From IMG/VR virus record IMGVR_UViG_3300014208_000027, positions 64,001 to 128,000 of that record: 64,000 nt of DNA; one strand, given 5' to 3'. The stretch comes from a virus. Its lineage: Duplodnaviria; Caudoviricetes. The notes under the pieces were generated by a model, which made no database searches, was not told the origin of the DNA, and was given only the letters and a program-made list of their open reading frames with translations. Shown here in pieces: positions 1 to 31,587 of this stretch. Numbering within the stretch: position 1 is the stretch's first letter; each line of letters begins with the position of its first letter. Both the position numbers and the translations under genes were made by a program.

Positions 1-600
1 TATGATGAAATAGACCAGTATTGTAAGCAAATAAACTTTTTGTGGTTTGCTTCCGCGTGGGATACTGAAAGTCAAGTTTTTCTAAGAAAATATGATCTGT
101 TATATAACAAAATTGCCTCGGCTCTTTTGACACATAAAAAGTTGTTAAATATGGTTGCAGAAGAAAAGAAATATACTTTTATTTCAACAGGCATGAGCGA
201 TTTAACACAGATCCGTGAGGCAGTAGAAGTTTTCAGATCTAAGGATTGTGAATTTGAATTGTTGCATTGCAACTCAACGTATCCAATGAAAAATGAAGAT
301 GCAAATTTAAGAGTAATAAAAACTTTAAGAAACGAATTTGGGTGTGATGTTGGATATAGTGGTCATGAAACGGGAAGGGTTGTATCAGTAGCAGCAGTGG
401 CTCTTGGGGCAACATCTATTGAACGACATATTACTTTGGATAAAACTATGTACGGGTCAGATCAAGCTGCTTCAATAGAAATTTCTGAATTAAAAAGACT
501 TGTCGAAGACATTCGACAAGTTGAATTGGCTTTAGGTTCTTCAGAAAAGAGGGTCTTGGAAACAGAAATTCCAATTATGAAGAAACTGCGAAAGAATTGA
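1..600 (+). CDS. neuB: N-acetylneuraminate/nonulosonate synthase (NeuB/PseI/LegI family), 5'-truncated by the window edge
   Basis: Frame is open from base 1. Motifs ISTGMS, LLHCNSTYP, NL..I..L, GYSGHE, GAT.IERH.TLD, G.DQ.AS. No C-terminal AFP/SAF domain. The exact product sugar is not determinable. Confidence 0.9.
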   Translation, partial: YDEIDQYCKQINFLWFASAWDTESQVFLRKYDLLYNKIASALLTHKKLLNMVAEEKKYTFISTGMSDLTQIREAVEVFRSKDCEFELLHCNSTYPMKNEDANLRVIKTLRNEFGCDVGYSGHETGRVVSVAAVALGATSIERHITLDKTMYGSDQAASIEISELKRLVEDIRQVELALGSSEKRVLETEIPIMKKLRKN

Positions 601-1301
601 TGATTTCTGCTTTAATACCCGCTCGCGGCGGAAGCAAGGGGATTCCTAAAAAAAATATTTTGAATATATTCGGGTATCCATTGATTGCGTATTCCATTTC
701 TGTTTGTAAAAAATGTAAAGATATAGATAAAGTTTACGTTTCTACTGACGATGAAGAAATTTCTGCCATTTCGGAGTTTTATGGAGCGACTGTTCTTAGA
801 AGGCCAAGTGAGCTTGCAATGGATCTTTCAAATGATTATGGTGTTGTAAAACATTTTTTTGATTGTTTCCCGTGTGAAGAAGTTTCTTACATTAGACCAA
901 CAACTCCTGCAAGAAACGTTGAAACACTCTCCAGTTGTATATCTTTTTATAAGAATAACAAATATAAATTAACTGGAGTTAGATCGGTTCATGAGTTGTC
1001 TGAGTCTCCATATAAATTTATAAAAATTGAAGATAGTGGATATTGTGGGGGTTTTTTTGAAAGTTTTAATGGGATAAAACAATATACAAATTTGCCAAGA
1101 CAGATGTTTCCAAAGGCGTACCACCCTAATGGTTATATCGATATACTTAAGAAAGAAACTATAGAAAAAGGAAGTGATTTTGGTGATAAAATTCTTCCAT
1201 TTTTGACTAGGAGAGTTTGCGAATTAGATATAGAAGAAGATATTGAATTCGTAAAAAATGATTTGGAAAGAAACGTAACTTTTGATATTTTTGAATCATG
1301 A
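600..1301 (+). CDS. neuA: CMP-acylneuraminate cytidylyltransferase (NeuA/PseF family)
   Basis: ALIPARGGSKGIPKKN, VYVSTDDEEI, RPSELA.D, PTTP.R, NG.I. ATG overlaps the neuB stop. Confidence 0.92.
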   Translation: MISALIPARGGSKGIPKKNILNIFGYPLIAYSISVCKKCKDIDKVYVSTDDEEISAISEFYGATVLRRPSELAMDLSNDYGVVKHFFDCFPCEEVSYIRPTTPARNVETLSSCISFYKNNKYKLTGVRSVHELSESPYKFIKIEDSGYCGGFFESFNGIKQYTNLPRQMFPKAYHPNGYIDILKKETIEKGSDFGDKILPFLTRRVCELDIEEDIEFVKNDLERNVTFDIFES

Positions 1302-2548
1302 TAAAAACTAAAAATAGAATAATTCAACCGGGGTTTGATGTTGAATCTTGTAGAATTCTTTCAGAAGAAAGAAAGAACATTGAAGATTATTCCGCTTGTT
1401 CTGAAATTCCGGTTTTATGGGATAAAGCGAAAAACTACTCTGTATATGACAACCTAGGAAACAAATGGATAGATTTAACTTCTGGAATTTTTGTCGCGAA
1501 TGCCGGACATTCAAATCCAAAAATCAAAAAAGCAATTAGAGAATGTCTTAAGAAAGATTTGTTATATTCTTTTTGTTATAATAATGAAATACGAGTGAAG
1601 TTTATAAAGAAACTTTTATCAATATCTCCTTCTTGTTTTAATAAAGCAATTATTTCTAATTCTGGGTCTGAAGCAACAGATACGGCTTACAAGTTGATAA
1701 AGGTATGGGGTAGACAATTTTCTCCACACAAAAATAGAATAATTTCATTTAAAGGCGCTTATCACGGAAGGTGTTTGAGTAGTTGTTTTCTTAGTAGATC
1801 AAAAGAGTATTCTGAATGGGCAGGCTTTGAGAACGATGTTACTTTCTTAGATTTTCCAGAAAGAGATGAAGATTTCCCGAGAGAATCTATAGGTGAAAAT
1901 GTAGCTGCGTTTGTAATTGAAACATATCAAGGCTGGAGTGCGTCGTTTTTACCAATTCAATATATGAAACAATTATATGAGTATGCTAAAGAGAAAGACG
2001 TTCTTATTGTTTTTGATGAGATTCAATCTGGGTTCTATCGAACTGGGAAGTTATATGGTTATATGAATTACGGCGAATATTTGGAGCCAGATATCATTAC
2101 TCTTGGCAAAGGTATTTCCTCATCGCTCCCAATGTCCGCTGTTTTGAGCAGAAAAGAAATTGTAGATATGGACAAAGGCATGGATTACTCTGGAACACAT
2201 CCAGGCGATCCTATTTGTTGTTATGCTGCTTTAGCAAATTTGGAGTTTCTTCATGAAAGTGTTTTCCAAAGAAAACTTAAAAACAAAATTAAAGTATTTT
2301 CTAAAATTAAAGAAATAGAAAAATATAATTGTGTGCAAAAAGTAAATGTCTTTGGTATGGTTGCCGGAATAATTTTTAGTTCAAAAGAGATTGCGGATAG
2401 AGTTGTGTATGGATGTATAAATAATGGAGTTTTCCCCGTGTATACTTATAAAAATTCTATAAAACTTGGACCACCTCTTACGATAAGTAATTCTGCAATA
2501 AAAGAAGCTTTTGGTGTTTTGGAAACGGAAATTAAAAAACATGAGTAG
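1298..2548 (+). CDS. Class III PLP-dependent aminotransferase
   Basis: D..GNKWIDLTSG, NSGSEA, F.GAYHG, FDEIQSGFYRTG, LGKGISS (PLP lysine). Confidence 0.9.
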   Translation: MIKTKNRIIQPGFDVESCRILSEERKNIEDYSACSEIPVLWDKAKNYSVYDNLGNKWIDLTSGIFVANAGHSNPKIKKAIRECLKKDLLYSFCYNNEIRVKFIKKLLSISPSCFNKAIISNSGSEATDTAYKLIKVWGRQFSPHKNRIISFKGAYHGRCLSSCFLSRSKEYSEWAGFENDVTFLDFPERDEDFPRESIGENVAAFVIETYQGWSASFLPIQYMKQLYEYAKEKDVLIVFDEIQSGFYRTGKLYGYMNYGEYLEPDIITLGKGISSSLPMSAVLSRKEIVDMDKGMDYSGTHPGDPICCYAALANLEFLHESVFQRKLKNKIKVFSKIKEIEKYNCVQKVNVFGMVAGIIFSSKEIADRVVYGCINNGVFPVYTYKNSIKLGPPLTISNSAIKEAFGVLETEIKKHE

Positions 2549-3197
2549 CATTTTAAAGTCTTCAAAATATCTTGAGGTTACCTATGAGAAAAGAGGCGTA
2601 GGATATCCTCGGGCTCTTTCAGGTTGGATTAAAAAGAATATTTTCAAGAAAACGGGTCGGTTACTTGATGTTGGTTATGGTCATGGGGATTATTTGCGTG
2701 CTTTTTCAGACTTACAATATAATGTTTGTGGAGCAGATCTTTCTCCGACTCTTATTCGTCCGTTTGATTGTAGAATAGTTGATATCGAAGAAAGACAATA
2801 CCCAAAAGAAGAATTTGATTTTGTATTTTCTAAATCCGTTATAGAACACGTAAAAAATGTTGACAATGCTACAAAGTTTCTGTATGATAGTCTTAAAGTA
2901 GGAGGAAAACTCGTTGTTATGACTCCATCTTGGGAATATACAAGTTTTGGCCCGTTCTATAATGATCACACTCACGTAACTCCATTTACAAAAACTTCTC
3001 TAGAAAATATATTGAAGATGCATAATTTCAAGAATATTCAAGTCGATTATTTCTATCAACTTCCGTTTGTTTGGAAATATCCATTCTTGAAATATTTTTG
3101 CAAACTTATCAATTTTTTAAAAATTCCATACAAAGATTCTAAATTGATTAGATTTTCTAGAGAAGTTATGTTGCTTGCAATTGCGGACAAATTATAA
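2541..3197 (+). CDS. Class I SAM-dependent methyltransferase
   Basis: LLDVGYGHG motif I, GADLS, FD.V.S..VIEHV, LK.GG.L. Start placed at the ATG overlapping the upstream stop. Confidence 0.85.
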   Translation: MSSILKSSKYLEVTYEKRGVGYPRALSGWIKKNIFKKTGRLLDVGYGHGDYLRAFSDLQYNVCGADLSPTLIRPFDCRIVDIEERQYPKEEFDFVFSKSVIEHVKNVDNATKFLYDSLKVGGKLVVMTPSWEYTSFGPFYNDHTHVTPFTKTSLENILKMHNFKNIQVDYFYQLPFVWKYPFLKYFCKLINFLKIPYKDSKLIRFSREVMLLAIADKL

Positions 3198-3198
3198 A

Positions 3199-3603
3199 AT
3201 GAAGATTAGACATGTCGGACTTGTTGTTAAGAACTTGGGAGAGTCTATCCTGTTTTATGAGTCAATCGGTTTTAGGGTTTTTAGTAACGAAATTGAACAA
3301 GGAAATCATATTTCCAATTTTTTCAGCGAAGAAGGGTTACAAGTTCATATAGCAAAACTTAAAAATGACTTTGGAGAGTGTTTGGAACTTTTGTGGTTTG
3401 GTAACGGCACAAAAAAGAAAAAAAATAGCTTGAAAAGTCTTGGACTCACGCATATTGCGCTAACCGTAAGAGACAGTGGAGACCTGTATAGCAGTTTTAA
3501 AAAATGTTGCGAAGTGCAAACAACGCCCACTGGTCACAAAGTTCTTTTCGTGCAAGATCCCAATGGCGTTTTTCTAGAGCTTGTTCAGGATCCAAGATGC
3601 TAA
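3199..3603 (+). CDS. VOC/glyoxalase-family protein
   Basis: HVGLVV.NL.ES..FY, LELL, THIAL.V, F.QDPNG.FLELV. Confidence 0.85.
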   Translation: MKIRHVGLVVKNLGESILFYESIGFRVFSNEIEQGNHISNFFSEEGLQVHIAKLKNDFGECLELLWFGNGTKKKKNSLKSLGLTHIALTVRDSGDLYSSFKKCCEVQTTPTGHKVLFVQDPNGVFLELVQDPRC

Positions 3604-4388
3604 ACGGCCTAGCAAACATCAACATAGAACTGACTGACATTTGTAACAAAAAATGTTGGATGTGTGGTCGGCGCAAGAGAGAAAAGCAATATCCAGATAT
3701 CATCAAGTCATACGGTTATATGGATTTTTCTTTAGTTGAACAAATTTCTAAACAAGTTCCCGCAAATATTATGGTTCAATTCCATAATAATGGTGAGGCA
3801 TTTTTGTACCCTCGTTTTGGGGAAGCAATTAGTTTGTTTGGGAAGCAAATTAAAAATGTTGTTACCAATGGGAAACTTCTTCTTGAAAAATATGATGAGA
3901 TAGTTAATAACCTTGATACGATAGCAATTTCTGTTTTTGAGAGTGACCCAGAAGCAGAAGAACAATATAAAATTGTTAACGAATTTGTGTCAAGAAAGGG
4001 TTTGAATAAGCCACTTATGATTATTAGAGCAAATGGAAATGTTGATATCCGCAGATATGAGCAGATGGGTTTGAAGGTTGCAAGGAGAATCTTACATGCT
4101 CCAGAAGGCTCGTTTAACTATGTTGGAAAGAATCCAACCATTCCAGAACACGGTATATGTTTAGATTTTCTTACGCACCTTGCAATTAGTAAAAATGGCG
4201 ATGTTTCAATTTGTGTTAGATATGATCCGAATAGAAAAGGTGTTCTTGGAAATATCAAAAATAATTCATTAGAAGAATTGTGGAATTCTGAATTGAGAAT
4301 GGAATGGATGGGATGTCATAAACAAGGTTGCAGAGATAAAATTCCTTTATGCTCCGGTTGTGAATTTTATGGAGTACCGACACAATAG
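3597..4388 (+). CDS. Radical SAM protein with SPASM/twitch domain
   Basis: IELTDICNKKCWMC (CxxxCxxC). C-terminal C...I..NGDV..C..D...LGNI...LEELWNS...C..C. The ORF-track start at 3504 is an upstream extension. Confidence 0.88.
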   Translation: MLNGLANINIELTDICNKKCWMCGRRKREKQYPDIIKSYGYMDFSLVEQISKQVPANIMVQFHNNGEAFLYPRFGEAISLFGKQIKNVVTNGKLLLEKYDEIVNNLDTIAISVFESDPEAEEQYKIVNEFVSRKGLNKPLMIIRANGNVDIRRYEQMGLKVARRILHAPEGSFNYVGKNPTIPEHGICLDFLTHLAISKNGDVSICVRYDPNRKGVLGNIKNNSLEELWNSELRMEWMGCHKQGCRDKIPLCSGCEFYGVPTQ

Positions 4389-4408
4389 TAATGTAATTTA
4401 TAGGAAAT

Positions 4409-5314
4409 ATGATGATTAAAAATTTTGATATAACAATAGAACTTATCGTAGATGCTATGCGAAATCAAGCTTTAGAAGCACACACCTCTAAGGCAGAGGT
4501 TGACATATCAGGGGGAGTAGATAGTGCTGTTGTTGCGGCATTATCTTGTAGAGCGTTTGGCAGGGAGAATGTAATTGGAGTTTACAGCTCTATTAATTCT
4601 TCTGACTCTTCACGTCGTCTTGCAAAAATGGTCGCTGACAAGTTTAAATTCCATTTTATTGAGCTAGATCTTTCCGAAGCTTACCGACAAATCACAATGC
4701 AAGTTATGGTTTCTTTTTGGAAAGCTGGTTTGGTTTGTCCGAATCAAGGAGACGTTGATTCTAAAAAAACATATGGTGGACTTAGAAGTTGTTTGCGTGC
4801 TCCTGTTGGAAGATTTATAAATAGGATGTTCGGCGGCGGAATACGAGAAGGTACTGGTAATCGCGATGAAGATGAACTGATTCGTTTTTATCAGAAAGGT
4901 GGAGATGGAGAAGTTGACAGTAATTGGATCGAAGGTTTGTTTAAGGGTGAGGTTTGGGAACTTGCGAAACATTTAGGAGTCCCTGATGAAGTTATCAACG
5001 CAACGCCAACACCTGATTTATGGGGTGGAGAGGTTCACAGTGATGAGAAAGAACTTGAAGACATCACTGGGGTGAAATTGACTTACACACGTCCTGGTGG
5101 ACCAATGGGAACGATTGAATGGGCAAGTCGAGAGAATTCGGAGAATGACTGTATCATAAATCAAGATCTCGACTTGAATGTTTTTGGTTATGATGAGAAG
5201 CAGCTTAAAATCATTAATGCAATGCGGAAATTAGAAAAATCAAGTCGACACAAGGGTTGTATGCCTCCGTATATTTGTAGAGAGGTTCTTATTGAAAAAG
5301 GAGCTGTGGAATGA
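4409..5314 (+). CDS. nadE: NH3-dependent NAD+ synthetase-like protein
   Basis: ISGGVDSAV PP-loop, GTGN..E, KGGDG, L.K.EV..LAK.LGVP..I...PT.DLW. No glutaminase domain. Confidence 0.85.
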   Translation: MMIKNFDITIELIVDAMRNQALEAHTSKAEVDISGGVDSAVVAALSCRAFGRENVIGVYSSINSSDSSRRLAKMVADKFKFHFIELDLSEAYRQITMQVMVSFWKAGLVCPNQGDVDSKKTYGGLRSCLRAPVGRFINRMFGGGIREGTGNRDEDELIRFYQKGGDGEVDSNWIEGLFKGEVWELAKHLGVPDEVINATPTPDLWGGEVHSDEKELEDITGVKLTYTRPGGPMGTIEWASRENSENDCIINQDLDLNVFGYDEKQLKIINAMRKLEKSSRHKGCMPPYICREVLIEKGAVE

Positions 5315-6513
5315 AGGTTTTGTTCGCTAATTTTTTTAATGATGAAGCTTACGGAATGAGAATTTTGCATTCTATTGTTTCAGAAAGGTATGATTGTAAA
5401 ATTCTTTTCATTAAAGAAAATAATGAACAATTAATAACGAAAGTTATTTCTAATTACTCTCCTGATGTGTTGTGTGTCAGTCTTACTTCCCCTAATTTTT
5501 GTTTGTACAAAAAACTTTATGAGGGTATTAGAAAATCTATGAATGGTGGTTTGATTGTTCTGGGTGGTTGGCATCCCACATTAAACCCAAATTCCTGTGC
5601 TCCATATTGTGATGTTGTTGTTCAAGGTGAGGCAGAAAAAAATATACTGAAGATTCTTGATGATATAGAAAGAAAATCTTTTTTAAATTTATATACGTTT
5701 TCGTCGCTTTCTAAAGATATTAATCACCCTCTTTTTGTATTTAATGGGAATAATTGCATAACAATTGAAAAAGGACAAATTCTTTTCGGTGAACCTTATT
5801 CTAGAAACGAACGCTATGGAACAATGATGGGTAGAGGTTGCCCTTATAGTTGTACTTATTGTTCTAATTCATTTATGAAAGAAAAATATAATAACTGGAC
5901 GAAAATTAGATATAGAAACTTTGAAAAGGTTTTGGAAGAACTTTTAGTGGTTCGTAAATTGTTTCCAAATATTAAAAAAATAAACTTCTATGATGAGGTA
6001 TTCTTTCAGACAGAACAGTATGATTCTTTTTTAAGGCAATATAAGCAGGAGATTGGTCTACCATTTTTTTGTATGTTTTACCCTGGAACTGTTTCTGAGC
6101 CTATGGTAGAAAAATTAAAAGAAGCAGGAATGGTCGGAGTATGGTTGGGTGTTCAATCTGGATCTGAGAGAGTTAGGAGACACGTCTTTGAAAGACGATA
6201 TTCAAACGAGAAACTAATGAAACAGATTCTCATGTTTAAAAAACATGACGTTGATGTAAGATATGATTTTATTTTCAGTAATCCGTTTGAAACCAAGGAA
6301 GAATATCAAGAGACAATACAGTTAATAAAAACATTTCCAAAGCCATTTTCCATTAATATGTTTGAACTTAAGTGGTTTCCAAATACAAAAATAACAAAAA
6401 TGGCTTTGGAAAGTGGTTATTCAATAACTACAGAAGATGAAATATTTTATGAAAACCCTTCATACTTGATAGATGAAGAAAAACAAAAAGAAATCTTACA
6501 GGAAATCGGTTAG
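5311..6513 (+). CDS. Cobalamin-binding radical SAM protein (class B methyltransferase-like)
   Basis: B12 domain (PDV..VS, VLGGWHPT, DVVV.GEAE) followed by GRGCPYSCTYC, F.DE.F, GVQSGSE. Confidence 0.9.
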   Translation: MKVLFANFFNDEAYGMRILHSIVSERYDCKILFIKENNEQLITKVISNYSPDVLCVSLTSPNFCLYKKLYEGIRKSMNGGLIVLGGWHPTLNPNSCAPYCDVVVQGEAEKNILKILDDIERKSFLNLYTFSSLSKDINHPLFVFNGNNCITIEKGQILFGEPYSRNERYGTMMGRGCPYSCTYCSNSFMKEKYNNWTKIRYRNFEKVLEELLVVRKLFPNIKKINFYDEVFFQTEQYDSFLRQYKQEIGLPFFCMFYPGTVSEPMVEKLKEAGMVGVWLGVQSGSERVRRHVFERRYSNEKLMKQILMFKKHDVDVRYDFIFSNPFETKEEYQETIQLIKTFPKPFSINMFELKWFPNTKITKMALESGYSITTEDEIFYENPSYLIDEEKQKEILQEIG

Positions 6514-6547
6514 TGTATAAAGCTATTTTTTTTAAGCTTATAGAAAA

Positions 6548-6967
6548 ATGATGGTACTTGAAGAAGACACTAGACGATGTACTCGATGTAGAAAAGTAAA
6601 AAGTATTATTGAATTTGATGAGAAGTCTACTGATGAACATTATAAATCTTGTTCAAAATGTCTTGATTATGAAAGAGAATATAAACATCGTAGAAACAAA
6701 GAAGTAACAAAGAAAAATAAGCGTACTAGAGATTTGAAAAGATTATATAATCTTTCTTTAGAAGAATATGAAAAAATGGTTGCATTACAAGGTGGAAAAT
6801 GTTATATTTGTCAAAGAGATAAAAAATTAGTAGTTGACCATAACCATTTAACCAATAAAGTAAGGTCGCTACTATGTGATAAGTGCAATAGAGGGTTAGG
6901 TTTTTTTGATGAAGATATTGGTTTTTTAATTGGCGCTATAGAGTATTTACAACTTCACAAGGGATAA
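6548..6967 (+). CDS. Endonuclease VII-type HNH nuclease (putative free-standing homing endonuclease)
   Basis: N-terminal CxxC zinc fingers, then QGGKCYIC...L.VDHNH...VR.LLC..CN.GLG. Confidence 0.85.
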   Translation: MMVLEEDTRRCTRCRKVKSIIEFDEKSTDEHYKSCSKCLDYEREYKHRRNKEVTKKNKRTRDLKRLYNLSLEEYEKMVALQGGKCYICQRDKKLVVDHNHLTNKVRSLLCDKCNRGLGFFDEDIGFLIGAIEYLQLHKG

Positions 6968-6971
6968 AAAA

Positions 6972-7151
6972 ATGAAAGTGTCTAGACAGTTTGCAAAAAG
7001 TTTAATGCTAGCAGTACAAAAAAGTATTATGGAACAAGTTGATATTCTTGAAACCTTGGAAGGATTTGAAGTCGTCGATACTGAAGATGGCCTAGTGGTA
7101 ACAAATCCGCCCATTTTGAAAGTTGATACTGTTACACCTGAAGAAGAATAA
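6972..7151 (+). CDS. Hypothetical protein, 59 aa (MKVSRQFAKSLMLAVQKSIMEQVDIL...)
   Basis: Hand-translated ORF below the track cutoff. Fills the gap exactly between two plus-strand genes. Confidence 0.7.
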   Translation: MKVSRQFAKSLMLAVQKSIMEQVDILETLEGFEVVDTEDGLVVTNPPILKVDTVTPEEE

Positions 7152-7153
7152 TC

Positions 7154-7411
7154 TTGCCTATCTACACCTACCATTGTTCATCTTGTTTAATAAATTTTTG
7201 TGTTTCTCATATGTTGTGTGAAAAAATCGAATATTGTGAATGTGGTGGTAAGGTAGAACGAGTTCCAAGTAATTTCTCAAGTTCTGGAGTTATACAAAGG
7301 CAGCAAAATAAAAAAGTTGGCGATGATACTAAGAAATTTATTGAAGAATCTCGGAAAGCATTACAATCCCAACGAGAAGAGTTAGAAACACAAAGAACCA
7401 CGGGTAGATAA
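7154..7411 (+). CDS. FmdB-family zinc-ribbon protein, C-terminus altered by IS insertion
   Basis: MPIYTYHCSSC...F...C..CGG.VERV. The last codons (GR*) derive from the element's left end. Confidence 0.8.
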   Translation: MPIYTYHCSSCLINFCVSHMLCEKIEYCECGGKVERVPSNFSSSGVIQRQQNKKVGDDTKKFIEESRKALQSQREELETQRTTGR

Positions 7412-7414
7412 CAG

Positions 7415-7444
7415 TTGACTAAACCATTTACATTGATATATAAT
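7415..7444 (+). promoter_or_regulatory. sigma70-type promoter inside the element left end, driving tnpB
   Basis: TTGACT-N18-TATAAT. Confidence 0.65.
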
Positions 7445-7457
7445 CACTTATAAATAA

Positions 7458-8633
7458 ATGCTAAGAGCCTATAAGACAGAATTAAACCCAAATAATAAAC
7501 AAAGGACGCTTCTGTTAAAGCACGCTGGCGCAGCCAGGTGGGCTTATAATTGGGGTTTAGCTAAAAAGATTGAAGAATATCAATCAACCGGAAATTCTCC
7601 TTCTGCAATTGATTTACACAAGCAGTTGAATTTACTGAAGAAAACTGAGATATCTTGGATGTATGAAGTCTCCAAAATGGCTCCGCAGGAGGCTTTGAGA
7701 AACCTTGATATAGCTTTTAAGAACTTCTTTAGAAATTGTAAGAAAGGTTCTAAACAAAAAGGTTTCCCAAGATTTAAATCTAAGAAAAATGGAGTTGGTT
7801 CGTTTACCTTTTCCATGCAAGTCCGAGTAATTAATGGAAAAATCCAGTTACCAAGATTAGGAAAGATTCGACTAAAAGAAACTGACTATTTTCCAACTAA
7901 TACTAAGATTAGGTCCGCAACCGTTTCGGAAAAAGCTGGCAGATGGTTTGTATCAATTTTAGTTGACGAAGAATTTACCAAAGAGCAAGGTGGTGAAATT
8001 ATTGGAGTTGATGTTGGAATCAAGACTTTGGCAACTTTGTCCAATGGAATTATTTTTGAAAATTCAAGGTCTCTAAAAAAACACGAAAGGAAACTGCGAA
8101 GACGAAGTAAATCAGTTTCTCGCAAAAAGAAAGGATCAAACAATAGAAAGAAAGAAGTCAAGAAGTTAGCGAAGCTACACTACAAAATCTCTTGTACCCG
8201 AAAAGATTCAATTCATAAAGCTACGACTGCGATAACCAAGCAGGCAAAAGTTTTGTGTATCGAAAACTTGAATGTTTCCGGCATGATGAAAAATCACAAG
8301 CTAGCGAAATCATTGTCGGATGCTTCAATGGGAGAATTTTTAAGACAACTGGAATATAAGGCAAGCTGGGCAAATATTCCAGTAATTAAAGCTGATCGAT
8401 TTTTCGCTAGTAGTAAGTTGTGTTCGAATTGTGGTTGTCTCAAAGAAACATTAAGTTTAGGTGAACGAATTTATTGTTGTGAACATTGCAATCTTTCTAT
8501 TGACCGAGACTTAAATGCAGCAATTAATCTAAAAACCTTGGCCGGTAGTTTACCGGACAATAAAAACGACTCTGGAGGCACTCGGTTGGTGTCGGTGAAA
8601 GAGGAAAAAAGCACAATTAGTAACAATTGGTAA
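7458..8633 (+). CDS. tnpB: TnpB RNA-guided endonuclease
   Basis: N-terminal HTH (AYKTELNPN..Q...L...AG.ARWAYNWGL), RuvC triad intact (IGVDVG, CIENL, DRD.NAA.NL), zinc finger C..CG...C..C. Confidence 0.95.
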   Translation: MLRAYKTELNPNNKQRTLLLKHAGAARWAYNWGLAKKIEEYQSTGNSPSAIDLHKQLNLLKKTEISWMYEVSKMAPQEALRNLDIAFKNFFRNCKKGSKQKGFPRFKSKKNGVGSFTFSMQVRVINGKIQLPRLGKIRLKETDYFPTNTKIRSATVSEKAGRWFVSILVDEEFTKEQGGEIIGVDVGIKTLATLSNGIIFENSRSLKKHERKLRRRSKSVSRKKKGSNNRKKEVKKLAKLHYKISCTRKDSIHKATTAITKQAKVLCIENLNVSGMMKNHKLAKSLSDASMGEFLRQLEYKASWANIPVIKADRFFASSKLCSNCGCLKETLSLGERIYCCEHCNLSIDRDLNAAINLKTLAGSLPDNKNDSGGTRLVSVKEEKSTISNNW

Positions 8634-8665
8634 GTCTTTTATAACGGAATACCAGTAAAGGTTAA
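8500..8665 (+). ncRNA. Putative TnpB omegaRNA scaffold plus guide (boundaries approximate)
   Basis: Overlaps the tnpB 3' end and right end. Hairpins CCGGTA-GTT-TACCGG (8542-8556) and GGCAC-N7-GTGTC (8577-8593). Guide expected from the flank starting at 8648, by family precedent. Confidence 0.55.
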
Positions 8666-8667
8666 CA

Positions 8668-8979
8668 ATGATATTTTTAAGCATATTTCTTGTTCTTTCC
8701 ATATCAATAAATATATTGCTGGTTTGGTATTGTAGAAAGGTTACTGAGCGTCTATATTATGTATCTGAAAATATGGGAGAATTTCATGAAAGAATTGCAG
8801 AGTTTGAAGAACATGTAAACGTAATTTCGACAATGGAAACATTTATTGGAGAACCTATTATAGAAAACTTACAGAAACATGCCAGAGCTATGGTAGAAGA
8901 AATTAAATCTTATAAAGAAGTTTATTCTTTAACACATGAAGTTCAAGGCGATCAAGTTGTCGAGGAATCTGAAGTTTAA
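8668..8979 (+). CDS. Small membrane-anchored coiled-coil protein
   Basis: N-terminal hydrophobic helix, SD-like AAGG upstream. Confidence 0.7.
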   Translation: MIFLSIFLVLSISINILLVWYCRKVTERLYYVSENMGEFHERIAEFEEHVNVISTMETFIGEPIIENLQKHARAMVEEIKSYKEVYSLTHEVQGDQVVEESEV

Positions 8980-9698
8980 TGGCTAGACCTAAAGGTTCTA
9001 CTAAAAGCGTAGCCAGGCCCGGTCAAGATAAAAAACAATATTTTACTAAAGATCATGAAAACGCTATTCTTGCTTATGTAAAAACTGATAGTCTTCCTAT
9101 TCGTACCAAACTTTATATTCAGTTCATAGAGCCTTCATTTTCAGAAATGGTAGAAAAGATTTCCTTCACTTATAAATTTAATTCTTTGCCTAACATAAGT
9201 TTTCTCAAAGAAGAATGTAAGATTTGGCTTGTGACTATTTTAGATAAATTTGATGTTAATAAGGGCTATAAAGCTTTTTCTTATTTTTCTATTATAACCA
9301 AGAATTGGTTTATAGCTAAGACAAAGAAGAACGCTAGTCAAAATAAAAAAGAGATTCAAGGTGAAGATCTTTCCAAAGAGTTAGAATACAAATACTATTC
9401 TGATAGTAATGAATACTTTGAGAAGCGTGAAGAGGCTGAATTTTGGATTCACTTCTTGCAAGAGTTAGATCGTTGGGACGACTTAGCTGTTAAGGAAAAT
9501 GAAGTAAAAGTATTAGATGGTATTAAAGTTTTGGTAGCAAACATAGAAGATATACCAATTTTTAATAAGAAGGCAATTTATTTTTTCCTTCGTGAAATTA
9601 CCAACCTATCAACCAAGCAAATCGTAGCATCGTTGAATAAGTTTAAAGCAGAATATAAGTTGTTCAAGAATGATTGGGATAACGGCGAAACTTTTTAA
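8979..9698 (+). CDS. Phage sigma factor-like late transcription protein (T4 gp55-like)
   Basis: Sigma region-2-like segment LDKFDVNKGYKAFSYFSIITKNWFI, preceded by YFT...E.AI..Y. Confidence 0.7.
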   Translation: MARPKGSTKSVARPGQDKKQYFTKDHENAILAYVKTDSLPIRTKLYIQFIEPSFSEMVEKISFTYKFNSLPNISFLKEECKIWLVTILDKFDVNKGYKAFSYFSIITKNWFIAKTKKNASQNKKEIQGEDLSKELEYKYYSDSNEYFEKREEAEFWIHFLQELDRWDDLAVKENEVKVLDGIKVLVANIEDIPIFNKKAIYFFLREITNLSTKQIVASLNKFKAEYKLFKNDWDNGETF

Positions 9699-29790: not shown

Positions 29791-31587
29791 TTGGCACAGA
29801 AAAGACGTAAAGTAGGAGTTGATTACTTATCTACCGATTTTAATAGTATTAAAAATTCTCTAGTAGAGTACGCTAAACGATATTACGAGAATAGTAATAA
29901 AGATTTCTCAGAAAATAGCTTTGGTAGTATGGTTACCGACATGACTGCATATGTAGGTGATATACTATCATATTACTTAACTTATTCTGTAAATGAAAGT
30001 TTTCTTGATAGTGCTTTAGAATATCAAAATGTTATAAAAATAGGAAGATCTCTAGGATACAAATTTAAAGGTGTTCCAACTTCATATGGCGTCTTAACGA
30101 CATACGTTATGATCCCGTCAGACGGTCAAGGAAGACCAGATATAAGATATTTTCCTACACTTATGAAAGGTTCAAGATTTAGTTCTAATGGTGGGGCAAG
30201 TTTTACACTTAGAGAAAATATAGACTTTAGCAAGAGTGACAATGAAATAATTGTTGCTGCTGTAAATGATAACGGGTCACCTGCTAGTTATGCCGTAAAA
30301 AGTTTTGGAACTGTTCTTAGTGGGGATTACAATGAAGAAATTATTAGCATTGGAAGTTTTCAAAAGTTTCTTAAAGTTAGATTAAGTGGCCAAAATATAG
30401 CAGAAGTGTTAGAAGTGGTAAGTCAAGAAGGTGACAGTTGGTATGAAACGGAGACGTTGAGCCAAAATGTCGTCTGGAAGGAAATAAATAATGTTAACGC
30501 TGCAACCGACGGTGCATTATCAATCTTAAAACCTATCACAGTTCCTAGAAGATTCTCAGTAGAACAAGATGGAAATGGGAATACTTTTCTACAGTTTGGA
30601 GCAAGTTCTGGTGAAGATATATTAGCAAATAATATTTTAGATCCTACCAATACTACGCTACAGCTTCTAGGAAGAGATTATATTTCAGATACGAGTTTTG
30701 ATCCGTCAGAATTGTTAACAGGTGATGGAATGGGAATAGCTCCGTCTAATACACAATTAAGAGTGCTAACAAGAAATTTAAGTATTCAAAACTCTAACGC
30801 TGCACAAAATAGCATAACGGAAGTAACAAGTCCTATATTTGAATTTAGGAATAGAGTAAGTTTAAATACAAATACTATAAATTCTGTTGTAAGTTCTCTA
30901 GAGGTTCTAAATGACGAGCCAATTTTAGGTGCAATATCTTTGCCTACTAGTGAAGAATTAAAACTAAGAATTGAAGGCAATTACGCTAGTCAAGATAGAT
31001 GCGTAACCGGACAAGATTTTAAGGCAGCAATTTATAACATGCCTGCTAAATTTGGAGCAATTAGACGCTGCAACGTGATGACGGATATCAACTCGTTCAA
31101 AAGAAATTTAAACATTTATCTGGTTAGTGAAAACTCTGATGGAACACTTGTTGCGCCATCAAATACTATCAAACAAAATTTGAAAAACTGGCTGGCAAGT
31201 AAAAAGTTAATTGGTGATACTGTAGATCTACTTCCCGCCATAATTGTGAATGTTGGTATAAACTTCGAAATCGTCGCGCAACCTGAAAAAAATAAATTTA
31301 GCGTTTTACAAATAGCTACTGATGAATTAATTTCTCAATTATCAACTGTGCAAGATATAGGTCAAAGTTTCGACGTAAGTGCAATATATCAAATATTGAA
31401 AAATATACCAGAAGTTTTGGATTGTGTTAGTGTAAATATTATAAATAAAAATGGCGGGAACTATTCTGACGTGTCTGTAAATATTGACCAATTACTTGAT
31501 CCAAGTGGAAGATTTGTACGTTGCCCCAACAATGTGATATTCGAAATAAAATATTTACGTAGTGACATTCAAGGATCTGTCTCCTAA
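29791..31587 (+). CDS. Baseplate wedge protein (T4 gp6/baseplate J-like)
   Basis: YLSTDFNSIK..L..YAK.YY...DFSE.S.G...D..AYVGD.LSYY, Q.R.VT.QDF..., late motif CTAATTA at 29758. Confidence 0.85.
   Translation: MAQKRRKVGVDYLSTDFNSIKNSLVEYAKRYYENSNKDFSENSFGSMVTDMTAYVGDILSYYLTYSVNESFLDSALEYQNVIKIGRSLGYKFKGVPTSYGVLTTYVMIPSDGQGRPDIRYFPTLMKGSRFSSNGGASFTLRENIDFSKSDNEIIVAAVNDNGSPASYAVKSFGTVLSGDYNEEIISIGSFQKFLKVRLSGQNIAEVLEVVSQEGDSWYETETLSQNVVWKEINNVNAATDGALSILKPITVPRRFSVEQDGNGNTFLQFGASSGEDILANNILDPTNTTLQLLGRDYISDTSFDPSELLTGDGMGIAPSNTQLRVLTRNLSIQNSNAAQNSITEVTSPIFEFRNRVSLNTNTINSVVSSLEVLNDEPILGAISLPTSEELKLRIEGNYASQDRCVTGQDFKAAIYNMPAKFGAIRRCNVMTDINSFKRNLNIYLVSENSDGTLVAPSNTIKQNLKNWLASKKLIGDTVDLLPAIIVNVGINFEIVAQPEKNKFSVLQIATDELISQLSTVQDIGQSFDVSAIYQILKNIPEVLDCVSVNIINKNGGNYSDVSVNIDQLLDPSGRFVRCPNNVIFEIKYLRSDIQGSVS

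Follow-up and report, generated by a model that had tools for sequence, protein, structure and literature searches.

The DNA analysed here, referred to as the window, is a stretch of 64,000 nucleotides (nt) covering bases 64,001-128,000 of the virus record IMGVR_UViG_3300014208_000027, and its first 6,513 nucleotides carry a block of genes that includes NeuB and NeuA, the synthase and the cytidylyltransferase of nonulosonic (sialic-acid-like) sugar biosynthesis. The record, which is 203,498 bp long and rated complete by CheckV, comes from a groundwater jumbo phage. Few of its large open reading frames (ORFs) matched PHROGs, and the identity of the phage was settled through the major capsid protein Gp23 (PF07068, 185.8 bits; genome positions 162,424-163,938), which classes it, by sequence, as a T4-like (Gp23-capsid) myovirus. 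A baseplate wedge gene lies at window position 29791, and a 996-amino-acid (aa) protein encoded by a neighbouring phage gene had no match in INPHARED by tblastn. The GC content is even across the window, with values of 0.33-0.35 in positions 1-6513.

This part of the window holds eight co-oriented genes on the plus strand, with domains assigned by Pfam and NCBIfam profiles and with intact catalytic motifs (Table 1). At their likely starts, for which we used ATG 2541 for the methyltransferase, ATG 3199 for the VOC protein and ATG 3597 for the radical S-adenosylmethionine (SAM) enzyme with a SPASM domain, the genes either abut or overlap by 4-8 nt, with a 20-nt gap before NadE as the sole exception. 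A preliminary description, made from the sequence alone, had named the same eight genes and reported that they are contiguous with phage genes, and both statements are confirmed, the latter by Gp23 on the same record and by the baseplate wedge gene in the window. Its view of the 6.5 kb as a unit holds insofar as the genes are real, but the block is the right end, and about a third, of an island of roughly 23 kb (genome 47,548-70,513) that consists of co-oriented genes for soluble enzymes and starts with glycan genes at genome position 47,548. Scans for promoters and terminators over positions 1-9000 gave results at or below shuffled expectation and defined no operon boundary.

Table 1. Genes and features at the nonulosonate locus; positions are those of the window unless stated otherwise (PLP, pyridoxal phosphate; SDR, short-chain dehydrogenase/reductase).
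Feature	Position	Strand	Family match or remark
Short NeuB, C-terminal 199 codons	1..600	+	PF03102
NeuA-type CMP-ulosonate synthetase (cytidylyltransferase)	597..1301	+	PF02348 (CTP_transf_3), 79 bits
Class III (omega-type) PLP aminotransferase	1298..2548	+	PF00202 (Aminotran_3), 234 bits
Class I SAM-dependent methyltransferase	2541..3197	+	Methyltransf_23, 75.5 bits; ORF open from 2511
VOC-fold protein	3199..3603	+	PF00903 (Glyoxalase), 30.6 bits; ORF open from 3175
Radical SAM/SPASM enzyme	3597..4388	+	SPASM, 42.1 bits; CX3CX2C; ORF open from 3504
NadE-like PP-loop ATP pyrophosphatase	4409..5314	+	PF02540 (NAD_synthase), 95.3 bits
B12-binding radical SAM enzyme	5311..6513	+	PF02310, 43.1 bits; PF04055, 74.6 bits
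Endonuclease VII-family gene, right-edge boundary marker outside the pathway	6548..6967	+	PF02945, 74.5 bits
Flank gene of 85 aa, the first conserved one; marks where the variable island of related phages ends on the right	7154..7411	+	ORF cluster 20, downstream of glycan genes in 13 loci
TnpB (IS200/IS605-type RNA-guided nuclease), just right of the island	7458..8633	+	NF040570, 322.8 bits (cut-off 100); OrfB_IS605, Cas12f1-like TNB and HTH domains
Island genes in order, left part: GT4; 662-aa GT1/GT2; 465-aa protein of no family; RXYLT1-like; DUF6165; two DegT (LegC/PseC-like, RfbH-like); weak GT2			
Island genes in order, continued to NeuB: first B12 radical SAM; nucleotide-sugar dehydrogenase; methyltransferase; GT29-like; another methyltransferase; NeuB			
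Azospirillum thermophilum CFH 70021 short-NeuB cassette, SDR variant (L169)	plasmid NZ_CP029359.1, 107,876-136,694		

The NeuB ORF of 278 aa begins 236 nt left of the window, at genome position 63,764. It scores 247.6 bits against PF03102 over the entire profile of 241 positions (207.7 bits when only the portion within the window is scored), and we regard it as a full-length member of this family, predicted to be of the phosphoenolpyruvate (PEP)-dependent ulosonic acid synthase type. E11, H201 and H222 are invariant in the family alignment, with the two His 21 residues apart; by analogy with the Neisseria meningitidis enzyme, we take E11 to be the catalytic Glu and the His pair to bind the metal. 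Its best match in the PDB is PseI (8h2c, 1.8e-38). The protein terminates at residue 278, without a SAF/antifreeze-like domain. In canonical PseI, an Arg of the SAF domain is essential, and the R322A variant is inactive (PMC7591256). As this Arg is absent together with the domain, the short NeuB must bind its substrate differently.

The preliminary description gave as background that NeuB plus NeuA make CMP-activated sialic, legionaminic or pseudaminic acids and proposed a NeuB phylogeny as a check. Family membership stood up, but the protein did not reach either of the two curated NCBIfam models available for such synthases: it scores 248.5 bits against NCBIfam NeuB_NnaB (TIGR03569) and 201.2 bits against PseI (TIGR03586), below the cut-offs of 399.65 and 340.25, respectively, and it belongs to a separate, SAF-less clade. 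In a FastTree phylogeny of 209 sequences, 173 short forms, including that of the phage, lie on one side of a branch with an SH-like support of 99. The other side holds two annotated PseI proteins, two NeuBs that come from Leg-type clusters, a further annotated NeuB and the long forms that some loci carry as a second copy.

The short form is widespread. Relatives with 46-65% identity occur in at least 218 IMG/VR contigs, and more than 590 matches were obtained among species-representative genomes of bacteria and archaea, the best 80 of which have 48-66% identity; holders include Pelagibacteraceae, Lachnospiraceae, Nitrosopumilaceae, Acidobacteriota and Leptospirales. INPHARED contains no isolate with this NeuB, its best matches being two uncultured records at 42% identity. 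The most frequent neighbours of 80 cellular short NeuBs are NeuA (40 loci), an SDR (37), a GmhA-like SIS isomerase (33), a TIM-barrel protein resembling L-ribulose-5-phosphate 3-epimerase (22) and an HAD protein resembling KdsC or Kdn-9-phosphate phosphatase (18). This set of neighbours points to a sugar-phosphate route like that of Kdn or of the animal Neu5Ac pathway. On one plasmid of Azospirillum thermophilum, a full Leg cluster (LegB, LegC, NeuC and a 358-aa NeuB) adjoins another cassette, which comprises a short NeuB sharing about 56% identity with that of the phage, an HAD protein, three SDRs, a TIM barrel, methyltransferases, a radical SAM gene and a second cytidylyltransferase. Since it coexists there with a complete and separate Leg cluster, the short NeuB marks a pathway of its own.

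Many related phages (L020, L030, L046, L059 and others) carry two NeuB paralogues, one short and one long (323-503 aa), which suggests that each of these phages makes two different ulosonic acids.

NeuA matches CTP_transf_3 well above the cut-off of 22.6 bits, and its best PDB match is a CMP-N-acetylneuraminate synthetase (6ifd, 1.4e-30). The aminotransferase that follows it most resembles amino-acid-handling enzymes (acetylornithine, ornithine and gamma-aminobutyrate transaminases), with the acetylornithine aminotransferase 2ord as its best PDB match (6.4e-48). Eleven homologues all share K271, presumably the lysine that binds PLP, and D240-E241-x-Q243, the presumed PLP motif. Queried with an alignment or profile, its closest cellular relatives turned out to occupy NeuB/NeuA cassettes; a single-sequence search of genome contigs returned one distant match only, and the alignment query was needed. 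The aminotransferase closest to that of the phage (52% identity) lies with NeuA, an SDR and a TIM-barrel gene on a 181,649-bp contig of a Patescibacteria bin (L147, JANLHG010000020.1); judged by its size and gene content, this contig may be a jumbo phage that was binned wrongly.

In the VOC protein, H5, E63, H85 and E127 are invariant in the family, and we read them as a likely 2-His/2-Glu metal site. The single sequence had no sequence match in the PDB, and the family profile alone gave matches, to glyoxalase I (6bnn, 7.4e-15) and methylmalonyl-CoA epimerase (4e-9). Both of these enzymes shift a proton next to a carbonyl. The radical SAM/SPASM (twitch) enzyme has BtrN, a radical SAM dehydrogenase from the butirosin pathway, as its best PDB sequence match (4m7t, 3.5e-8) and as the best fold match of its predicted structure (E 6e-12, TM 0.66/0.70; predicted local distance difference test [pLDDT] 78), followed by EpeE, BlsE, DesII and SpeY. 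Its Cys residues 16, 20 and 23 (CX3CX2C) and 188, 206, 252 and 255 are invariant in seven homologues, and we consider it a BtrN-like, putative sugar dehydrogenase. The last enzyme of the block passes the PF02310 cut-off of 32.1 bits and carries CX3CX2C at residue 177. Its best NCBIfam matches are uncharacterised B12/radical SAM families, below their cut-offs, and its best PDB match is AprD4 (6fd2, 1.3e-8). We therefore describe it as a B12-binding domain joined to a radical SAM core, putatively either a C-methyltransferase or an AprD4-like dehydratase. Homologues with 47-55% identity are found in glycan islands, including the L260 cassette described below and a 207-kb relative with a GT29-like gene and a cytidylyltransferase.

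The combination of a class III aminotransferase with two radical SAM enzymes had been called atypical for such a pathway. It is, rather, a conserved arrangement found in several bacterial phyla, and class III aminotransferases are already on record in nonulosonate clusters of Aeromonas. The short NeuB, NeuA, the aminotransferase, the methyltransferase, the VOC protein, the BtrN-like enzyme and the B12 radical SAM enzyme make up a conserved seven-gene cassette common to the phage and to anaerobic or microaerophilic bacteria. The gene order NeuB, NeuA, aminotransferase, VOC, methyltransferase, together with both radical SAM genes, recurs in metagenome-assembled genomes (MAGs) of Desulfobacteraceae (L174) and Leptospirales (L178) and on a 286-kb bacterial contig (L260), where a GmhA-like gene precedes it; a groundwater Elusimicrobia MAG (L087) holds all seven genes in slightly permuted order. 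One viral locus (L044) has six of the seven, with NeuB after the methyltransferase and a GmhA-like gene adjacent; the B12 radical SAM gene was not detected there. That NeuB and NeuA belong with the tailoring enzymes, as had been supposed, is supported by their travelling together in bacterial and viral loci. Among 81 viral loci, a set that includes near-duplicate contigs, so that counts drawn from it overstate the independent events and to that extent speak less strongly for a conserved cassette, the NeuA gene adjoins the short NeuB in 68, the aminotransferase is present in 16 and the VOC gene in 21, the latter two always beside NeuB, and all 16 loci with the aminotransferase also have the VOC gene. 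In the viral loci examined, NeuB and NeuA are never more than about 4 kb away from the aminotransferase gene, and the three are adjacent in the best-matching cellular loci. Eleven viral loci, along with L087, L174, L178 and L260, pair the methyltransferase with the cassette.

The two oxidising enzymes are distributed in a mutually exclusive manner. The 29 loci that combine a short NeuB with the aminotransferase hold either an SDR of the adh_short family (23 loci) or a radical SAM/SPASM enzyme (6 loci), with none holding both and none holding neither. Several viral loci in this set are near-duplicates, and the counts thus exceed the number of independent events. From this pattern we infer that the radical SAM enzyme takes the place of the NAD-dependent SDR dehydrogenase in the variant carried by the phage.

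NadE is the odd gene of the block. The preliminary description had included it in the pathway, a placement that its relatives do not favour: those at 64-69% identity occur in non-glycan contexts, among genes for Cpn60, Thg1, IF3, peptide deformylase and thioredoxin on contigs resembling those of huge phages and next to CobU in a Desulfobacterales MAG, and no copy was seen in any other NeuB locus examined, viral or cellular. The protein has the PP-loop motif SGGVDS at residue 34 and scores 90.9 bits against TIGR00552 (nadE), above the cut-off of 63.65, and 106.3 bits against NF010587, below the cut-off of 255. We also considered an amidotransferase of the PseA/WbpG type, which forms acetamidino groups, and rejected it, as TIGR03573 was not among the matches and the close relatives lie outside glycan loci. 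NadE is thus probably a separate, NH3-dependent NAD synthetase that is merely placed in the operon and takes no part in sugar tailoring. Its 4-nt overlap with the next gene speaks against this conclusion, since such an overlap would also fit membership in the pathway.

The preliminary description expected a glycosyltransferase to the left of the window, and five are encoded there: a GT4 enzyme, the 662-aa GT1/GT2 protein, an RXYLT1-like protein, a weakly matching GT2 enzyme and a protein with the fold of GT29 sialyltransferases. The gene of the last lies 0.9 kb upstream of NeuB; its product scores 50.4 bits against PF00777 (cut-off 23) and lacks a membrane anchor, and both sialylmotifs (L and S) as well as the HxxxxE (VS) motif are retained in three homologues. 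Its structural model is of moderate quality (pLDDT 68), and the top 41 fold matches in the PDB are all GT29 or GT42 sialyltransferases; we assign to it, on motifs and model, a predicted sialyltransferase fold. A hydropathy scan of 22 island proteins revealed no transmembrane-like segment apart from a short hydrophobic stretch inside a soluble DegT protein. A flippase, a polymerase and an initiating transferase are hence all missing from the island.

At the corresponding site, over 30 related viral contigs also have an island of glycan genes, flanked on the left by PhoH, a PD-(D/E)XK nuclease, the GT4 gene and the 662-aa glycosyltransferase gene and on the right by the same small genes. A relative of the phage, a 207-kb phage contig (L258, from Logan SRR18595301), shares the GT4 and 662-aa glycosyltransferase flank. 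Its island holds a B12 radical SAM gene, a C-methyltransferase, two DegT genes, two epimerases, a GT29-like gene, a cytidylyltransferase and a radical SAM/SPASM gene. Since the same flank here borders a different content, we regard the island as a hypervariable locus. A further protein of the island under study, of 465 aa (genome 52,353-53,750; L002 6353-7750), is encoded between the 662-aa glycosyltransferase and the RXYLT1-like gene, has neither a Pfam match nor relatives in 80 related loci, and might represent a new kind of transferase or serve to bind the acceptor.

A search for a NeuC-like epimerase, the other enzyme proposed to lie upstream, found none in the phage genome. Across all 203 kb, PF02350 (NeuC/LegG) gave only an 11.9-bit match inside a 1076-aa ORF, which we dismissed as chance level, and PF01370 and PF02719 (4,6-dehydratases of the PseB/LegB type) gave no match, although most control genomes contained all of these families. 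PseG is likewise absent from the phage genome, and no N-acetyltransferase domain was present among the island ORFs scanned, a genome-wide search for it not having been run. No SIS, HAD, SDR, TIM-barrel, cupin or Maf-like gene was found anywhere in the genome. The HAD and SIS proteins of relatives, both present in L090 and L008 and scoring below the Kdn-9-phosphate phosphatase and GmhA cut-offs, likewise found no counterpart in it by tblastn.

These data lead us to a reading that we hold with moderate confidence, namely that the seven-gene cassette provides an activated amino- and methyl-decorated sialic-acid-like sugar by a biochemically unstudied route, with NadE unrelated to it and virion proteins as the most likely acceptor. 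In this scenario, the host would supply an aldose or aldose phosphate, as the partner genes usually found with a short NeuB are missing from the phage and the precursor must therefore come from the host. The short NeuB would condense PEP with this precursor, yielding an ulosonic acid other than the classical Neu5Ac, legionaminic or pseudaminic acid. The BtrN-like enzyme, or an NAD-dependent SDR in most relatives, would then oxidise a hydroxyl group to a ketone; the VOC protein may isomerise or epimerise the position next to the new carbonyl via an enediolate, and transamination by the class III enzyme would turn the carbonyl into an amine. Addition of methyl groups or removal of oxygen could fall to the methyltransferase and the B12 radical SAM enzyme, and NeuA would generate the CMP-activated donor. 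Finally, the GT29-fold enzyme and the four other soluble glycosyltransferases would attach the sugar to a cytoplasmic acceptor, most likely structural proteins of the phage before assembly.

A cytoplasmic reaction is favoured because the island encodes no membrane or export protein. Relatives carry MptE/Maf-like proteins, which belong to the family of flagellin nonulosonate transferases, at the position of the GT29-like gene; with all parts of the system soluble as well, virion proteins are the most economical acceptor. Both the structure of the product and the identity of the acceptor are, at this stage, matters of prediction.

Several observations weigh against this reading. The phage itself lacks the GmhA-like isomerase, KdsC-like phosphatase, SDR and TIM-barrel genes usual beside a short NeuB. 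In its NeuB, the His of the NHNG motif is replaced by Ala (NANG, residue 16), a change seen in 5 of the 209 aligned NeuB sequences, all of them viral (this phage, L016, L036, L039 and L078), with His in 172. A DegT gene about 7 kb upstream encodes a protein scoring 287 bits on the LegC model TIGR04181 (cut-off 420) and 263 bits on PseC (cut-off 423.5). The best NCBIfam match of NeuA is PseF, at 99.4 bits against a cut-off of 205.7. The DegT protein, this match and that of NeuB to PseI in the PDB leave room for a product resembling pseudaminic or legionaminic acid. Finally, the chemistry is our inference throughout, from the compound that NeuB condenses with PEP to the carbon that receives the amine and the sequence of the reactions.

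One explanation would dispose of the phage context altogether: the block could be host DNA misassembled onto a phage contig. Two Logan contigs of the probable source run, of 36.9 and 22.6 kb, cover the region without any difference, and they meet inside NeuB (window 109-128, a 20-nt overlap), with no single contig bridging the join; the assembly graph may branch here because the sample contains a related NeuB or a strain variant. The NeuB frame, however, runs intact across the join, the depth is equal on its two sides (10.2 and 10.3), both halves are contiguous with phage genes and the GC content is uniform. An independent groundwater run from 2022, belonging to a different study, contains 80% of the sampled words and identical pieces on both sides of the join, and the many related viral contigs have the island at the same place. 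The block is phage-borne and not chimeric, the chimeric origin that the preliminary description had named as a possible refutation is not what was found, and we give misassembly practically no credence. Nearly as improbable, in our estimation, is that the sugar and the glycosyltransferases serve the hypermodification of DNA, in the manner of the glucosylated T-even DNA and other phage DNA glycans. The phage is T4-like, and viruses are reported to encode transferases for the hypermodification of DNA with a variety of glycans (Pyle et al. 2024, as cited in PMC12619734). Its genome, however, encodes no hydroxymethylase of the thymidylate synthase family, as would be needed for 5-hydroxymethyl pyrimidines, which makes DNA glycosylation unlikely. 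GT29 and Maf-type transferases, moreover, act on glycans or proteins, and we know of no transfer of a CMP-ulosonate to DNA.

The remaining alternatives concern the identity and the destination of the sugar. It is unlikely, in our view, that the locus represents an ordinary pseudaminic or legionaminic acid pathway, with NeuB as a PseI or LegI acting on a 2,4-diacetamido-2,4,6-trideoxyhexose made by the host and the downstream genes varying N-acyl groups (acetamidino, N-methyl), as ptmG and ptmH do in Campylobacter. Besides the LegC/PseC-like DegT protein and the PseF and PseI matches mentioned above, related phages do have a 4,6-dehydratase and a DegT gene beside the short NeuB. The synthase itself argues otherwise, scoring far below the PseI and NeuB cut-offs, lacking the domain with the Arg needed in canonical PseI (PMC7591256), branching off from two annotated PseI and two Leg-cluster sequences and coexisting with a separate Leg pathway in A. 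thermophilum. In cellular genomes it most often adjoins a GmhA-like isomerase, a KdsC-like phosphatase, an SDR and a TIM barrel resembling sugar-phosphate epimerases, the phage genome has no PseB/LegB, PseG, NeuC or LegG, and NadE stands outside the PseA/WbpG amidotransferase family. We find it still less likely that the products of the aminotransferase, VOC, methyltransferase and radical SAM genes build a small molecule distinct from the sugar, such as an amino-acid-like acyl group, that is later joined to the sugar or is unrelated to it. The aminotransferase is indeed nearest to amino-acid-handling enzymes, and Campylobacter is known to have nonulosonates whose N-acyl groups are unusual (PMC3068675). 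The gene set, however, has no conserved partner of the ligase, acyl carrier or acyltransferase kind, the aminotransferase stays near NeuB and NeuA in viral and cellular loci, and the structure nearest to the radical SAM/SPASM enzyme is a carbohydrate dehydrogenase, with the sugar-tailoring enzymes BlsE, DesII and SpeY among the next. Somewhat easier to entertain, though we doubt it, is that the same sugar coats the infected cell (its flagellin, pilin, S-layer or lipooligosaccharide), blocking superinfection or hiding receptors, while the virion stays undecorated. Phage-borne enzymes that alter nonulosonate capsules of the host are known (PMC12053666, PMC6586298), and the MptE/Maf-like proteins of relatives would fit such a role. 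On the other hand, the island has no flippase, polymerase, initiating transferase or other membrane protein, and five phage-encoded transferases suggest a self-contained glycan on an acceptor of the phage's own choosing. A T4-like phage is, furthermore, expected to be lytic, so that remodelling of the cell surface has little time to bring a benefit.

Decoration of the virion with a sugar of the short-NeuB family thus remains our preferred reading, and it invites comparison with systems already described. The bacterial Neu, Pse and Leg pathways share with the locus a PEP-dependent synthase of the NeuB family followed by a CTP_transf_3 enzyme, and a sialyltransferase-fold enzyme and a LegC/PseC-like aminotransferase are found in the phage island as well. 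They differ in that the phage NeuB is SAF-less and falls below the NeuB and PseI cut-offs, in that the phage has no 4,6-dehydratase and in that the amine, apparently introduced by a dehydrogenase, the VOC protein and a class III transaminase, would not enter at the nucleotide-hexose stage. The Kdn-9-phosphate or animal-type route, as in BT1714/BT1713 of Bacteroides thetaiotaomicron, resembles the cellular members and many phage relatives, which pair the short NeuB with a KdsC/Kdn-9-phosphate-phosphatase-like HAD protein and a sugar-phosphate isomerase, a pairing that suggests a phosphorylated substrate. The phage under study, by contrast, has neither HAD protein nor isomerase, and its aminotransferase, VOC protein, methyltransferase and radical SAM enzymes are foreign to the Kdn pathway. 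Such a synthase accompanied by a PLP-dependent aminotransferase (class not stated) and a second NeuA has a likeness in Leptospira, where a NeuB2-aminotransferase-NeuA2 trio is described and a Kdn/animal-type route has been proposed (PMC4758666). The group I polar flagellin glycosylation islands of Aeromonas have a class III aminotransferase, a reductase, an HAD hydrolase and a methyltransferase among their nonulosonate genes, with a Maf-type transferase nearby (PMC7874193). These islands are bacterial, however, with canonical pseB, pseC, pseF and pseI and no radical SAM gene, and the role of the aminotransferase is not known there (PMC7874193).

A further parallel is offered by the tailoring of aminoglycosides, in which oxidation by BtrN precedes transamination and GenK and AprD4 act as B12-type radical SAM enzymes; both radical SAM enzymes of the phage cassette point there through BtrN and AprD4. 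The proposed oxidation followed by transamination mirrors the biosynthesis of 2-deoxystreptamine, in which either an NAD-dependent dehydrogenase or BtrN is used, depending on the organism, and the exchange of an SDR for a radical SAM enzyme seen here may be analogous. The comparison has its limits, as sequence identity is low (about 18%) and an ulosonic acid, or the precursor of one, is the presumed substrate here in place of an aminocyclitol. As for the acceptor, a precedent comes from mycobacteriophages, whose own soluble glycosyltransferases are reported to modify capsid and tail-tube proteins while these are in the cytoplasm (Freeman et al. 2023, PMC10527164, as cited in PMC12619734). For the phage described here, virion glycosylation is a prediction. 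To our knowledge, those mycobacteriophages encode no CMP-ulosonate pathway. A literature search found no paper characterising the short NeuB, the cassette or its occurrence in phages; on phages and nonulosonates it returned papers on host receptors or prophage modification only, and nothing on a sialic acid synthase in cyanophages.

The locus is, in sum, a real, recurrent and biochemically uncharacterised variant of nonulosonate biosynthesis that is carried by a phage and is unique neither to this phage nor to phages. Three bacterial pathways (Neu, Leg and Pse) dominate the textbooks, and sialic-acid-like sugars shape recognition among microbes, phages and the immune system. The locus belongs to a further, short-NeuB family with a cytidylyltransferase of its own, no member enzyme of which has been characterised. 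By swapping the NAD-dependent dehydrogenase for an oxygen-independent radical SAM enzyme and adding a B12 radical SAM enzyme, the variant offers a concrete hypothesis for new amino-ulosonic acids, and the cultured A. thermophilum, with its SDR-variant cassette, gives a direct experimental handle on the core pathway. A hypervariable island at a fixed site beside conserved glycosyltransferases, within a group of T4-like phages, is also the pattern expected for diversification of virion glycans.

A bolder extension, which we put forward as speculation with little probability attached, is that the cassette is the missing route to a new class of ulosonic acids. Such acids would gain an extra amine through oxidation by a radical SAM enzyme or SDR, isomerisation by the VOC protein and class III transamination, and their carbon skeleton would owe its extension or branching to the B12 radical SAM enzyme, or else derive from a heptose phosphate via the GmhA-like isomerase; environmental T4-like phages would then diversify the glycan coat of their own particles by means of the hypervariable island. 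The products could include the CMP-linked C10 ulosonic acids that a 2026 preprint reports from Magnetospirillum, for which the genes are not known (bioRxiv 10.64898/2026.04.20.719630). That a C10 skeleton could arise from C-methylation by the B12 radical SAM enzyme or from a heptose-phosphate substrate is only a lead.

At the right edge of the island, the conserved flank gene is itself flanked by the endonuclease VII-family gene and by TnpB, which is full-length and was seen without TnpA.

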